64,000 nt of DNA from Eledone cirrhosa (Eukaryota). Under the pieces are notes generated by a model. The model did not search any database. It saw only the letters and a list, made by a program, of their open reading frames with translations, and was not told the DNA's origin. Below, in pieces: positions 3,298-51,307 of this stretch. The stretch's first letter is position 1; each line of letters starts with the position of its first letter. The stretch is taken from the NCBI GenBank assembly GCA_964016885.1, contig OZ024761.1, positions 15,872,001 to 15,936,000 on the forward strand, read 5' to 3'. A program made the position numbers and the translations under genes.

Positions 3298-4238
3298 ATA
3301 TTGTTATACTTGGGAAGGGTCATATTGTTGTAATAATATTGCCAGAAATAATAACAGAACACACTCACTGTTTGGTTGGTTTTCGCTTCTGTATCTTTCA
3401 TATCTCCATAGTTAATTTATTTTATATATCACTGATTGACCAACGGTTAGAAATACAGATATAAATATATTTATATTCCGACCTCACACACTTACACCTC
3501 TCCAAGACAATGTCACTGGACCGAGATCTTTGGCGGTACTCAGTAATAGAGTAGATCCGCCTTACCTAAATACAAAGTAAAACCTACTACAGTCAGTAGG
3601 CACCACTAACAAAATACCCCCCCCCCCCCCCACCGCCCCTTTCAATGTAAAGTTATGTTGGTGCCACAACATCCAGGCCGAAACAAATGAGATCGTGTAG
3701 GTGTCACAACACATGCTGTAATCTGGTCGTGTAGGCAACACGGTAAAAACCTCCCAGCCCCACACTGTAAATGTGGTTGGTGTTAGGAAGGGCATCCAGC
3801 TGTAGAAAACCCGCCAGACAGTCCTATGTGAGCAAGACAACCACTCTTGCCTCAAGTGGGAAAACTCCCGTCCAAACCCATGCAAGCGTGGAACATGGAT
3901 GTTAAACGATGATGATGATGATGATGATATATAGTCTATCAAAGTTTTTCGTTGCAAATCTGCAACATCATCAGTGGTACTATTATGTTCCTGCCTATTG
4001 TATTGTATGTCTATGCCATTTTTTAACAGATGGTCAATCAATGATAAACGTTGATTGCCAAATGAATTAACTATAACTATGGAGATATAAAAGATACAGA
4101 AGCAAAAACCAACCAAACAGTGAGTGTGTTCTGTTAGTATTTCTGGCAATATTATTACAACAATATGACCCTCCTCCCCAAGTGTAACAATATTTGTTTC
4201 GACACCCGATTTCATATCAAAAACCTTGCAAAACAAAT
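3298..4238. mobile_element. Inverted pair of PLE-related terminal fragments (3298-3415 minus; about 4065-4238 plus) around an RTE 3' end
   Basis: atgaccctcctcccaagtgtaacaatatttgtttcgacacccgatttcatatcaaaaaccttgc resembles the tail of the 43-45 kb PLE. Confidence 0.6.
3940..3978 (-). ncRNA. Hammerhead core fragment
   Basis: CTGATGA t gttgca-gatt-tgcaac GAAA; stem I partner not evident. Confidence 0.45.
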
Positions 4239-4298: not shown

Positions 4299-4349
4299 GC
4301 ATGACATATATTTCTGTGACATGGTTATGCATGTGACTTCATCAGATGC
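4299..4349 (-). ncRNA. Minimal type I hammerhead ribozyme
   Basis: gcat CTGATGA agtcacatg..catgtcaca GAAA tatatg TC atgc; stem II has a mismatch. Confidence 0.7.
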
Positions 4350-4572
4350 TCATACAAAATATATATATATATATATATATATGTGTCAAACAGATGTATT
4401 ACATTAAATTGTAATATTACGACCATAATACATGCACATTGCACATTTAGACATGCATTATAAAAAAAAATCATATCAGAGAAAAGAAGAACGAAAATAC
4501 TGTGAGCAACTCATCAAGGTGTGTGTGTATGTGCATATATATATATATGTATGTATGTATATATAGATAAGG

Positions 4573-43093: not shown

Positions 43094-43155
<62 letters not shown>

Positions 43156-43635
43156 ATACTTTGGGAGGGTCATGTTGCCAATAAGAAACACACGCACCAG
43201 TTGCTTTCACTTCAATTTAATTTATTAAATATTTATAAATTTACAAATTTATAAATTTCTGGTTGGTTGGCCGGTTCCACAACCAGATAGTTGTTTATAT
43301 ATATATAGTCACAGCTCCCCCGCCACACACTCTGCGACCCCCCCAGCGACCGGGGACCCCCCTCTTCGCCTCTGCGCCCCTCCTTCCCCCCATCCCACGC
43401 CACCCTGCTTGTGTGTGGGTTGCGCGCTCAGTTTGCGCATGCGCCACATCCGGGTGTCTGTGTGTGTTTGTGTTCATTTTTCTATTTTTCTATTTATATT
43501 TTTTTTATTTGTTTGTTTATTTATTTATTTATTGTTGGTTGGCCGCCTGCTCTATGTGTGTGCGTGCCCTCATTTTGTGTGTGTTTTCAATTGTAAGTTG
43601 TTTGCTCGATGTGTGTGTGTGCCCCCACCCTGTCC

Positions 43636-44162
43636 TTAACTGTAAGTTGCGATGCCGCTGCTCCACTCATATCCTCCACTCAATTTTGGTTTTAATTCCT
43701 TTATGCCCACTGCCTCTGTAATTTGCCCAAACACCGCGTCCCTCTTGTGTGTGGATTCCACTTTTACTCCCATGCTCTCTAATTTACCCCTGTGTTCTAT
43801 CCCAGCATGTCGGTAGAGCACAGATGACTCCCTATTATCCTGGAGGTCCCGCCAGTGTTCATCCACCCGCTCCCCTACACCACGAGCCGCCTCACCCATG
43901 TACACTACATTTTTGTTTCTACATTGTCCTTCAGTACATCTTATGCCATATACTACATTTCCAGTTTTACAGCCAACATGGGGGCTTATTTTACAGGTTA
44001 TACATCTCCTATCCATACATGAGGGTCCTCGGAACGGGTATGTCTTGCCAATAAGTGTCCCTACGGAGGTACCAGGTCTCTCTACTATCTTAATATTGGG
44101 GTTATGTTTCTTTAGGGCCCTTCTAAATTTGTAGGCTAGTTCGCCTCTAGGGGTTGTATTGA
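43636..44162 (-). pseudogene. Mirror copy of the PLE GIY-YIG fragment
   Basis: Translation identical to the plus-strand copy. Confidence 0.88.
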
Positions 44163-44689
44163 TCAATACAACCCCTAGAGGCGAACTAGCCTACAAATTT
44201 AGAAGGGCCCTAAAGAAACATAACCCCAATATTAAGATAGTAGAGAGACCTGGTACCTCCGTAGGGACACTTATTGGCAAGACATACCCGTTCCGAGGAC
44301 CCTCATGTATGGATAGGAGATGTATAACCTGTAAAATAAGCCCCCATGTTGGCTGTAAAACTGGAAATGTAGTATATGGCATAAGATGTACTGAAGGACA
44401 ATGTAGAAACAAAAATGTAGTGTACATGGGTGAGGCGGCTCGTGGTGTAGGGGAGCGGGTGGATGAACACTGGCGGGACCTCCAGGATAATAGGGAGTCA
44501 TCTGTGCTCTACCGACATGCTGGGATAGAACACAGGGGTAAATTAGAGAGCATGGGAGTAAAAGTGGAATCCACACACAAGAGGGACGCGGTGTTTGGGC
44601 AAATTACAGAGGCAGTGGGCATAAAGGAATTAAAACCAAAATTGAGTGGAGGATATGAGTGGAGCAGCGGCATCGCAACTTACAGTTAA
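44163..44689 (+). pseudogene. PLE linker plus GIY-YIG endonuclease fragment (apparently A-to-G hypermutated)
   Basis: CxxC...C, NVVYGIRC, VYMGE (YIGE), ERxxEH, YRHAxxEH, QITEAV, LxxxxEW motifs. Confidence 0.88.
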
Positions 44690-44973
44690 GGACAGGGTGG
44701 GGGCACACACACACATCGAGCAAACAACTTACAATTGAAAACACACACAAAATGAGGGCACGCACACACATAGAGCAGGCGGCCAACCAACAATAAATAA
44801 ATAAATAAACAAACAAATAAAAAAAATATAAATAGAAAAATAGAAAAATGAACACAAACACACACAGACACCCGGATGTGGCGCATGCGCAAACTGAGCG
44901 CGCAACCCACACACAAGCAGGGTGGCGTGGGATGGGGGGAAGGAGGGGCGCAGAGGCGAAGAGGGGGGTCCCC

Positions 44974-45018
44974 GGTCGCTGGGGGGGTCGCAGAGTGTGT
45001 GGCGGGGGAGCTGTGACT
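44974..45018 (+). ncRNA. Minimal type I hammerhead, apparently destroyed by A-to-G changes (mirror copy at 43307-43351)
   Basis: ggtcg CTGGGGG g gtcgca..tgtggc GGGG gagc TG tgact reverts by G-to-A only to agtca CTGAAGA a gtcaca..tgtgac GAAA gagc TA tgact. Confidence 0.65.
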
Positions 45019-45545
45019 ATATATATATAAACAACTATCTGGTTGTGGAACCGGCCAACCAACCAGAAATTTATAAATTTGTAAATTTATAAATATTTAA
45101 TAAATTAAATTGAAGTGAAAGCAACTGGTGCGTGTGTTTCTTATTGGCAACATGACCCTCCCAAAGTATAACAATATCGGTTTCAACACACGATTTCAGA
45201 TAAAGAATCTTGCTAAACAAATTCAGAAACGAAATATATATATATATATATTGTATATATATATCAATGTAAAGTTATGTTGGTGCCACAACATCCAGGC
45301 CGAAACAAATGAGGTCGTGTAGGTGTCACGACAAAAAAAAACACACAGTCCACGCTGTAATGTGGTCGTGTAGGTAACACGGTAAAAACCTCCCAGTCCC
45401 ACACTGTAAATGTGGTTGGTGTTAGGAAGGGCATCCAGCTGTAGAAAACCCGCCAGACAGTCCTATGCGAGCAAGACAACCACTCTTGCCCAAGTGGGAA
45501 AACTCCCGTCCAAACCCATGCAAGCGTGGAATATGGACGTTAAAC

Positions 45546-49294: not shown

Positions 49295-50778
49295 TCACCA
49301 GGTGATGGTGGTGATAATCGTAGTAGTAGTATTGGTGGTAGTGGTATTGGAGGTGGTAGTATTGGTGGTAGTAGTAGTGGTGGTGGTGGAAATAGTGGTG
49401 GTAGTAGTGGTATTGGTGGAAGTAGTGGTGGTGGTGGTGGTGGCAGTAGTATTGGTCGCAGTAGTGGTGGTGGTAGTAGTAGTGGTATTGGTGGCAATAG
49501 TGGTAGTGGTGGTAGTAGTGGTGGTGGTAGCAGTAGTGGTATTGGTGGCAGTAGTGGTGGAAGTAGTGGTGGTGGAAGTAGTGGTAGTGGTGGTAGTAGT
49601 GGTATTGGTGGCAGTAGTGGTATTGGTGGAAGTAGTGGTGGTGGAAGTAGTGGTGGTGGTGGCAGTAGTGGTATTGGTGGCAGTAGTGGTGGTGGTGGTG
49701 GAAGTAGTGGTATTGGTGGCAGTAGTGGTGGTGGTGGTGGAAGTAGTGGTGGTGGTGGCAGTAGTGGTATTGGTGGCAGTAGTGGTGGTGGTGGAAGTAG
49801 TGGTGGTGGTGGTGGAAGTAGTGGTGGTGGTGGCAGTAGTGGTGGTGGTGGAAGTAGTGGTGGTGGTGGTGGAAGTAGTGGTGGTGGTGGCAGTAGTGGT
49901 ATTGGTGGCAGTAGTGGTGGTGGTGGAAGTAGTGGTGGTGGTGGAAGTAGTGGTGGTGGTAGTAGTGGTATTGGTGGCAGTAGTGGTATTGGTGGCAGTA
50001 GTGGTGGTGGTGGAAGTAGTGGTGGTGGTGGTGGAAGTAGTGGTGGTGGTGGCAGTAGTGGTATTGGTGGCAGTAGTGGTGGTGGTGGAAGTAGTGGTGG
50101 TGGTGGAAGTAGTGGTGGTGGTAGTAGTGGTATTGGTGGCAGTAGTGGTATTGGTGGCAGTAGTGGTGGTGGAAGTAGTGGTGGTGGTGGCAGTAGTGGT
50201 ATTGGTGGCAGTAGTGGTGGTGGTGGTGGAAGTAGTGGTGGTGGTGGCAGTAGTGGTGGTGGAAGTAGTGGTGGTGGTGGCAGTAGTGGTGGTGGTGGTG
50301 GAAGTAGTGGTATTGGTGGCAGTAGTGGTGGTGGTGGTGGAAGTAGTGGTGGTGGTGGAAGTAGTGGTGGTGGTGGCAGTAGTGGTATTGGTGGCAGTAG
50401 TGGTATTGGTGGCAGTAGTGGTGGTGGTGGTGGAAGTAGTGGTGGTGGTGGAAGTAGTGGTGGTGGTGGCAGTAGTGGTATTGGTGGAAGTAGTGGTGGT
50501 GGTGGTGGAAGTAGTGGTGGTGGTGGCAGTAGTGGTATTGGTGGCAGTAGTGGTGGTGGTGGAAGTAGTGGTGGTGGTGGTGGAAGTAGTGGTGGTGGTG
50601 GCAGTAGTGGTATTGGTGGCAGTAGTGGTGGTGGTGGAAGTAGTGGTGGTGGTGGAAGTAGTGGTGGTGGAAGTAGTGGTGGTGGTGGCAGTAGTGGTAT
50701 TGGTGGCAGTAGTGGTGGTGGTGGAAGTAGTGGTGGTGGTGGCAGTAGTGGTATTGGTGGCAGTAGTGGTGGTGGTGC
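49295..50778. repeat. Compound (GGT/AGT)n trinucleotide array; similar arrays at 31680-32600 and 60800-62110
   Basis: Direct inspection. Confidence 0.9.
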
Positions 50779-51307
50779 CAGCAACTGTAGAGATAACTAA
50801 GTCAGTCACAGTGTGTTCTTTAAATACCAACAGTTGGTTAAGTTGTTCTTGGAACAGATAAGTTAGATTGTGTGTCATGGAAGAGAGAGAGAGAGAGGGA
50901 GAGAGAGAGGGGGGAAGCAGTGGGAAAGAGGGGTGGAGAGAGAGTGGGGAAGAGAGAGGGAGTGGGAATGGGAGAGAGAATGGGAAGAAGTGGGAGAGGG
51001 TGTGAGGAAAAGAGGAAGAGAGGAAGAGGGAGAGGGAAGGAAAGAGTGGGAAAGTGAGTGAGAGACAGAGAGAAGAAGAGGAAAAGGAGAGAGAAATGGA
51101 TGAGAGTGAAGAGGAAGAAAGAGTGCGAGGAAGGGAGAGGGAGAGGAAAAGGAGAGAGAAAAATAGATGAGAGTGAGGAAGAAGAGAGGGGTGAGGAAGA
51201 GGAAAAGAGACAGCTTCACAGTTATAGTTAGAGTGGGAGGTGGAGAGAGACAGGAGATAGAGAAAGAGGGGGGGGGAGTGGCAGAGTAAGAGAAACAGAT
51301 TGACAGT

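Follow-up and report, generated by a model that had tools for sequence, protein, structure and literature searches.

In this article I describe a copy of a Penelope-like retroelement in the genome of Eledone cirrhosa which, with a probability that I put at about 93%, was made when element RNA edited by the host's ADAR was reverse-transcribed into chromosomal DNA. The window (64,000 nucleotides of contig OZ024761.1) holds a truncated insertion that an earlier note, working from the letters alone, had read as the retrocopy of a hyper-edited transcript, and comparison with real copies supports that reading: the departures are almost purely A>G on the element's sense strand, as the note had claimed, 26 other copies show the family without these Gs, transitions are unbalanced with A>G nearly alone, short-read contigs carry the Gs, and the signature recurs at 18 loci. 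The recurrence, the zero-loop palindrome with identical edits and the descent of its two arms from one RNA go beyond the note. Together they are direct genomic evidence that A-to-I edits can return to the chromosomes time and again, in the lineage most noted for its RNA editing.

The proposed course of events begins with a young EN+ Penelope-like family (4.3-kb unit) that inserts into (TA)n, usually as an inverted pair of 5'-truncated arms. Transcripts running through such inverted copies would form long double-stranded RNA (one locus keeps both edited strands), and the host ADAR would turn roughly a quarter to 40% of the duplex A into inosine, as spectrum and context suggest. In about 1% of cases the reverse transcriptase of the element would take an edited RNA for target-primed reverse transcription and read inosine as G, both arms of the new insertion would be copied from that single edited RNA or its one cDNA, and in this way the edits would have become fixed in the chromosomal DNA of the 18 loci.

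The palindromic copy and its family

The insertion (Table 1) is a perfect palindrome at 43148-45177, with arms of 1015 bp, 0 mismatches in 1015 pairs and no loop, and both of its ends adjoin (TA)n. The right arm holds the end of the ORF, the 3' UTR, the pseudo-LTR and the start of the next unit's ORF, while the left arm carries the same 107 A>G on the element's sense strand and stops where the family has the first of its end points, at 4299 in the L031 unit. Since the arms are identical, the copy is very young or homogenised and, truncated as it is, it cannot encode a reverse transcriptase.

Table 1. Features of the insertion, in window coordinates (the concept of a tail is taken from the account in PMC11167929)
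Feature	Position	Strand	Basis or remark
Left (inverted) arm	43148..44162	-	exact reverse complement of right arm
Right arm, the element's 3' kilobase	44163..45177	+	family comparison
Zero-loop palindrome centre	44162..44163	.	5' truncation point common to both arms
5'-truncated ORF remnant: Cys linker and GIY-YIG endonuclease	44165..44689	+	frame still open
Hyper-edited span, 107 A>G	44245..45054	+	mirrored at 43271-44080, minus strand
T>C, sole non-A>G private change	44226	+	in both arms, nowhere else in genome
Zone without edits in 17 strictly passing loci	45103..45237	+	holds both end points of the family's insertions
60-nt tail, one side only (right)	45178..45237	+	family end point 4359
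(TA)n target microsatellite, left flank	43114..43150	.	sequence
(TA)n target microsatellite, right flank	45233..45252	.	sequence

Young copies of this family are numerous in the 3.0-Gb host genome: a copy search with the window arm gave 43 matches among the best 40 scored of 1625 candidates, and A/G-tolerant motifs, one placed in the ORF and one in the 3' part, counted 3503 and 3371 arms respectively. The full unit measures 4302 bp, with an open frame of 1290 codons in L031, and the best protein homolog of the element is found in Octopus vulgaris (70%). Matches to RVT_1 (E=2e-4) and GIY_YIG_2 (E=0.049) are both weaker than Pfam's cut-offs and a Pfam scan of the full ORF taken whole gave no match; a homolog at 35% identity has GIY-YIG above the cut-off. 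Hammerhead ribozymes in the pseudo-LTR are typical of EN+ Penelope-like elements, if not universal among them, and no Rfam match to E=5 was obtained over a whole unit, a result that leaves room for a divergent form. Read by eye in the translation, the endonuclease carries a CCHH motif (two Cys and two His around YIG) and the linker before it a C-x4-C-x2-C; partial tandems, inverted 5'-truncated copies and a one-sided tail are likewise present in the family. In PMC8557442 a CCHH motif belongs to the definition of EN+ Penelope-like elements, and a CX2-5CxxC linker and (TA)n targeting to that of the Neptune/Nematis type; I class the family, by these features and not by an RT tree, as an EN+ Penelope-like element of that type. 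With Neptune/Nematis and with Poseidon PAc, as their accounts present them, it has in common a single ORF with RT and GIY-YIG, tandem and inverted truncated copies, a one-sided tail between two end points and AT-rich targets (PMC8557442, PMC11167929).

A second young Penelope-like family (L091:2210-2808 and L165-L173; 1715 search candidates, about 99% identity) also lies in (TA)n with inverted arms, and no Cys linker of the first family's kind was noted in it; one motif for edited copies of it gave 0 matches with no total count, which is evidence neither way.

Set against each of 28 other locus rows, the window arm differs by 106-109 A>G (element sense strand), by 1-3 T>C and by 0-4 substitutions of other kinds. 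A column-wise comparison with 26 other copies puts A>G at 107 of the 470 A in each arm, together with the private T>C at 44226, a polymorphic T/C site at 44224, 0 G>A, 0 C>T and no other private change, and in 105 of the 107 edited columns no other copy has a G. The A>G excess is far beyond chance, and an APOBEC-type G>A skew is absent from all 301 aligned segments, many of them overlapping. The edits cluster (53 adjacent edited-A pairs against 27.6 expected, a value reached by 0 of 5000 shuffles), the flanks of the hyper-edited span keep 34 A before it and 71 A after it unedited, and the changes show no codon-position bias (22/15/19); relative to the unedited copy L003 they alter 47 codons of the ORF remnant, 36 non-synonymously and 11 synonymously, and add no stop.

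The same unedited copy allows the note's reconstructions to be judged one letter at a time. All 10 differing sites in the GIY-YIG stretch are indeed A>G, although the K that the note had reconstructed there is wrong, the family reading YIGETARSIGERINEH; RQITEAV and LNRKYEW were correctly read, as were the conversion of the simple repeat aaacaaacaacc and the G-runs. The gcgcatgcgc at 44881, taken by the note for an edited repeat, is present in the family and was not edited, the sole nearby A>G being at 44900.

Recurrence and neighbour preference

Candidate loci were gathered by searches with the two most edited window segments (30 and 40 matches, 30 loci fetched each), and they number 24 with the window included. 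Before counting, 27 subfamily A/G columns, 13 variable columns and the columns next to gaps were left out; 17 of the 24 then pass a strict test (whole-copy Fisher p<1e-3, sense A>G); the 7 failing loci, among them both L091 units, carry more background change (older subfamily). An extra locus found by motif search, L139 (C464:250 kb), has 126 A>G in one 866-nt segment. Compared pairwise, the edit sets have a median Jaccard of 0.32 over 174 pairs and share sites 1.39 times as often as chance would have it; since this overlap is only what site preference predicts, the edited loci come from separate molecules, each with its own edit set. Several older edited insertions have arms that have since diverged by ordinary mutations (L073, for example, by 9 differences in 573 columns), and from this divergence I infer that edited insertions have been inherited over many generations.

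Edited copies make up on the order of 1% of some 3,500 arms. G stands at both of two hot sites in 5 of 3503 arms, a low-capture motif count that gives a rough frequency only, and among the first 100 arms listed 1 (ORF motif) and 2 (3' motif) are heavily edited; the genome-wide strand control with the double-site motif (sense 1, antisense mirror 0) is uninformative at such low capture. The unedited 3' end, used as a query for an unbiased sample of copies, returned nothing, probably through words that are too common. When about 0.44 Mb of non-element DNA, counted with its overlaps, was screened for skew, 33 alignments were flagged; four flagged regions, considered as skewed non-element DNA, were rejected as microsatellite mismatches, and L035 shows no skew there.

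Several single loci add detail of their own. L106 (C1:437.25M) is possibly lightly edited: in the 5' portion of one tandem unit, at unit 151-639, A>G changes number 16, with G>A and C>T at 7 each. In L096 (C2:90.21M), L121 (C28:36.6M) and L103 (C3:317.99M) edits lie only in the ORF part and end near unit 3620-3830, leaving an unedited 3' UTR with a boundary that canonical inverted arms do not explain. L078-L079 (C2:324.75M) is a 4.5-kb inverted segmental duplication (97% identity) of a lightly edited element, and as such was rejected as the two arms of an insertion and dropped from the arm tally.

Neighbouring bases point to the enzyme. Pooled over the 17 loci, the share of A edited is, by 5' neighbour, 332/780 for U (0.43), 597/1629 for A (0.37), 163/856 for C (0.19) and 98/749 for G (0.13; p=7e-53), and by 3' neighbour 328/787 for G (0.42), 247/858 for C (0.29), 434/1612 for A (0.27) and 181/757 for U (0.24; p=1e-15). 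The order is thus U>A>C>G on the 5' side and G>C>A>U on the 3' side, and it matches the ADAR order of PMC6070904, reported there as 5' U>A>C>G with 3' G>C=A>U for human ADAR1 and 3' G>C>U=A for ADAR2. The background A>G of copies without editing is about 100-fold less frequent and lacks any preference for a 5' U. The depletion of a 5' G that the note had predicted is therefore overwhelming in the pooled loci but not significant in the window copy alone (12/70 against 95/400, p=0.28), where 5' A (0.37) outranks 5' U (0.28), and its remark that many surviving A follow a G is weak at 58 of 279 survivors. One point counts against the match: a 3' G follows 328 of 1190 edited sites (28%), a little above the 20-25% of sites given in PMC5625713 for a group including octopus in which the 3'-G preference is weaker. 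Octopus is otherwise described as having a hyper-editing signal among the strongest (PMC5625713, PMC10636886). The A_deamin family has four loci in the genome (C6:13.64M, C1:146.45M, C25:17.35M and C1:320.7M), of which C6:13.64M is ADAR2, its deaminase domain lying in two large exons with the catalytic motifs HAE, PCG and SCSDK and being 95% identical to Octopus vulgaris ADAR2 over the exon tested; with the O. vulgaris homolog of the element, this identity marks the host as an octopod.

Arms, ends and competing routes

Across 13 arm pairs at 9 loci (two of which have little editing in the overlap), 346 A/G sites are shared and 16 are discordant, when about 11 discordant sites are expected from later mutation as estimated from background rates. 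This sharing of edits shows, at the level of the compared arms, that both were copied from one RNA molecule or its cDNA and not from two transcripts. In 18 of 20 inverted insertions an end at 4299 is paired with one at 4358-4359, a pairing that would fit the account of anole PAc, in which both strands are cleaved and extended from two internal RNA sites (PMC11167929). The offsets between arm ends in 14 long insertions are 0-4 nt in 2 and 162-2879 nt in 12, and either of two routes is allowed by them: snap-back of the cDNA, favoured by the zero-offset centres, or two primings on the same RNA, which the commoner large offsets fit equally well. For the window copy I consider snap-back at the zero-loop centre the probable route and two primings on the same RNA its alternative.

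The last 135 nt of the element are unedited at all 17 loci (0/705 A, made up of 0/371 to 45177 and 0/334 in the tail), whereas just upstream 282 of 1013 A are edited. This zone is somewhat likelier than otherwise to be the place where the element's protein binds and priming occurs, either shielded by that protein or needed unchanged for insertion; a less probable account, offered tentatively, puts an antisense start site within the arm. An antisense partner exists for the 75 nt before the tail and not for the tail itself. Folding of the zone is no better than that of shuffles (z=+0.96).

A clue to the source of the duplex comes from L091 (C4:162.095M). Where its adjoining arms differ, the sense arm shows 20 A>G and 1 change in the opposite direction, the antisense arm 26 T>C and 4 in the opposite direction. 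Followed along a single strand, this is A>G throughout a hairpin, the pattern that an edited hairpin RNA copied whole would leave; it links the process to the strand of the transcript and favours inverted copies as the duplex source, on one locus and an arm-to-arm comparison. Inside the zone that is otherwise edit-free, the non-priming segments of L091 are edited (8/21 A and 11/20 T) and the priming end is not (0/21). Elsewhere, edits begin at unit 4042 (C1:2.089M) and 4051 (C1:18.4M), with 299 and 95 unedited A upstream, and the proximity of these starts to palindrome centres at 4036-4050 is suggestive for inverted copies as the duplex source.

Further structures accompany these observations. 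L091:874-3709 is a composite insertion, in which an edited sense unit is followed by a (TA)n tract and then by an antisense and a sense arm, both edited; from this arrangement it is probably a single read-through transcript retroposed whole. By eye its (TA)n tract is rich in T>C, which the tract finder missed and which is hence uncounted. A search for its parent locus through the junction matched only itself, and its spacer, tried as another route to the parent, proved to be a later, unedited insertion of the second Penelope-like family. For the window copy, the private T>C at 44226 matched only its own two arms in the genome; the palindromes L034 and L035, whose centres lie within a few bases of the window's, were rejected as hot spot or parent because the search query favoured them and the private change is absent. 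Five palindromic copies of about 580 bp, L159-L163 (C1:4.76M, 51.98M, 85.38M, 88.57M and 70.72M), have centres at unit 4036-4050, just downstream of a self-complementary GC-rich motif, with more such close pairs in the 3' motif listing; they could reflect a hot spot for truncation or snap-back, or be MITE-like derivatives. At L035:5095-5143 (C1:295.708M) the centre holds three iterated 26-nt junction units, as from repeated re-priming. At L074 (C1:2.083-2.093M) a tandem lies on the other side from the plus arm; its upstream unit has the same 29 edits as that arm, and its downstream unit is unedited and more diverged. A template switch could account for this, or an insertion that later entered the end of the arm.

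Four other routes to the same letters jointly keep only a small share of the probability, because each fails on identical arms, strand, context, read support or independence. The least improbable is hypermutation by the element's own enzyme, which under a skewed dNTP pool would put dC opposite A of an unedited RNA. Hypermutation from dNTP bias is familiar in retroviral enzymes, and it would also yield transcript-strand A>G, including through a hairpin as at L091. Error-prone synthesis of the second arm would nevertheless add errors, yet the window arms are identical over their whole length and the discordance elsewhere stays close to background; the neighbour order, moreover, is that of ADAR on both sides, and the boundaries of editing are sharp, both before the first edit at C1:2.089M and at the priming end. 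Even less is to be said for a deaminase acting on the DNA intermediate or on the inserted DNA (ADAR on an RNA:DNA hybrid, or a TadA/ADAT-like enzyme). The genome does have several A_deamin genes and ADARs are described as deaminating dA of DNA:RNA hybrids in vitro (PMC12925331), but deamination of first-strand cDNA would leave T>C on the sense strand where the data are A>G, and after insertion it would strike the arms independently, whereas they share their edits.

An artefact, either of assembling and sequencing a perfect palindrome or of cDNA contamination in the assembly, is very unlikely. Sequencing has difficulty with a 1-kb palindrome that lacks a loop and has identical arms, and polishing could homogenise it; the library type of the two short-read runs X1 and X2 is not on record. 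The check on DNA reads proposed by the note was nonetheless favourable: an X1 contig of 353 nt equals 44398-44750 with 0 mismatches at depth 13.1, and X2 gives pieces of 134 nt (2 other letters) and 62 nt (0) at depth 14, the two runs coming from one sample, probably the assembled individual, and covering parts of the arm; very high repeat-word depths suggest that both are genomic DNA. RAD-seq runs labelled as the same species (X9, X10) barely cover the edited span and have no bearing on other individuals. Palindromy alone does not generate the A>G pattern, since 0 of 20 other inverted insertions from C1 are hyper-edited; these controls are 15 of the 16 inverted pairs picked from the C1 arm listing plus 5 short pairs, the sixteenth, C1:2.089M, having been left out as already known to be edited. 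The near-perfect palindromes L034, L152 and L156 are unedited, edited copies without a long second arm exist (C4:244.6M and C3:317.99M, for example), arms of older edited copies have diverged by ordinary mutations, and the loci lie in (TA)n targets on chromosome-scale contigs. Equally remote is descent of the window copy from a diverged, G-rich subfamily: the family does have the subfamily A/G columns set aside above, but nearly all edited columns lack G in the 26 copies, the changes ignore codon position and are mostly non-synonymous, each edited locus has its own set, and genome searches with two edited window segments gave no near-identical G-rich copy among the matches listed.

Relation to known systems

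The closest precedent for the ADAR-edited retrocopies described here is the work of Knisbacher and Levanon on APOBEC-edited LTR retrotransposons in vertebrate genomes (PMC4866542), of which these copies would be the invertebrate counterpart. Both show hypermutation by a host deaminase during retrotransposition, fixed as clustered, strand- and context-biased transitions, but there, as far as that account goes, C-to-U changes on the cDNA of vertebrate LTR elements read as sense G>A, whereas here A-to-I on the RNA of an invertebrate Penelope-like element reads as A>G. The main text of that paper reports 19 invertebrate genomes at noise level, with a filter that dropped the A-to-G direction. ADAR-type A-to-G hypermutation is described for Rous-associated virus, avian leukosis virus, HTLV-2 and STLV-3, by the same chemistry, which turned nearly half of the A to G within an inverted-repeat region (PMC12925331); those cases are infectious, while here the element is non-viral, apparently inherited and found edited at no fewer than 18 chromosomal loci (at least 18), and the duplex, unlike theirs, most likely comes from the element's own inverted insertions.

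Penelope transcripts are reported to be hyper-edited in a lizard and in Xenopus tropicalis, where they are a major ADAR substrate (PMC5625713, PMC10636886), and what those accounts describe is the RNA, in contrast to the genomic copies of edited RNA seen here. The formation of inverted arms is called undefined for EN+ Penelope-like elements in the portions of PMC8557442 and PMC11167929 that bear on it; relative to these accounts of Neptune/Nematis and PAc, shared edits now place both arms on one RNA molecule. ADAR1 has been found to engage LINE-1, with more than 2.5 kb of L1 RNA free of editing and restriction without need of catalysis (PMC5224506, in the results drawn on here), whereas in the present case catalysis has left a genomic record. 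A review treats write-back through editing plus retrotransposition as suggested but unproven (PMC5974252), and a survey of trace data, in its relevant part, has A-to-G enriched in RNA-derived traces and G-to-A in retroelement DNA (PMC2873906). Searches of the open literature, with subscription journals mostly outside its coverage, gave no account of genomic retrocopies that were both non-viral and edited by ADAR; deaminase-marked retrotransposition is real and recurrent here, in an ADAR and Penelope-like form that these searches did not bring up.

The edits can serve as a barcode of how Penelope-like elements insert, and they make several questions testable from sequence alone, namely ADAR activity on transposon RNA in the germ line, the origin of inverted arms (from a single RNA rather than two) and the stretch of RNA that must stay intact (the 135 nt without edits). 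They also matter in practice: edited copies look 10-20% diverged at birth, which distorts the dating of transposons, and they can absorb edited reads in RNA-editing pipelines. Penelope-like elements are reported, in the part of PMC8557442 concerned, to move host genes in trans, and it is an improbable but far-reaching idea that octopod Penelope-like reverse transcriptases form a general channel from RNA editing to DNA, edited host transcripts included, with inverted insertions acting as a self-limiting ADAR loop. If it were true, recoded messages could be hard-wired in the genome, and each hairpin copy would recruit ADAR and so mutate its later progeny. As a last observation on the window itself, 49300-50780 is occupied by a 1.5-kb trinucleotide satellite of GGT/AGT type with an extreme G skew.
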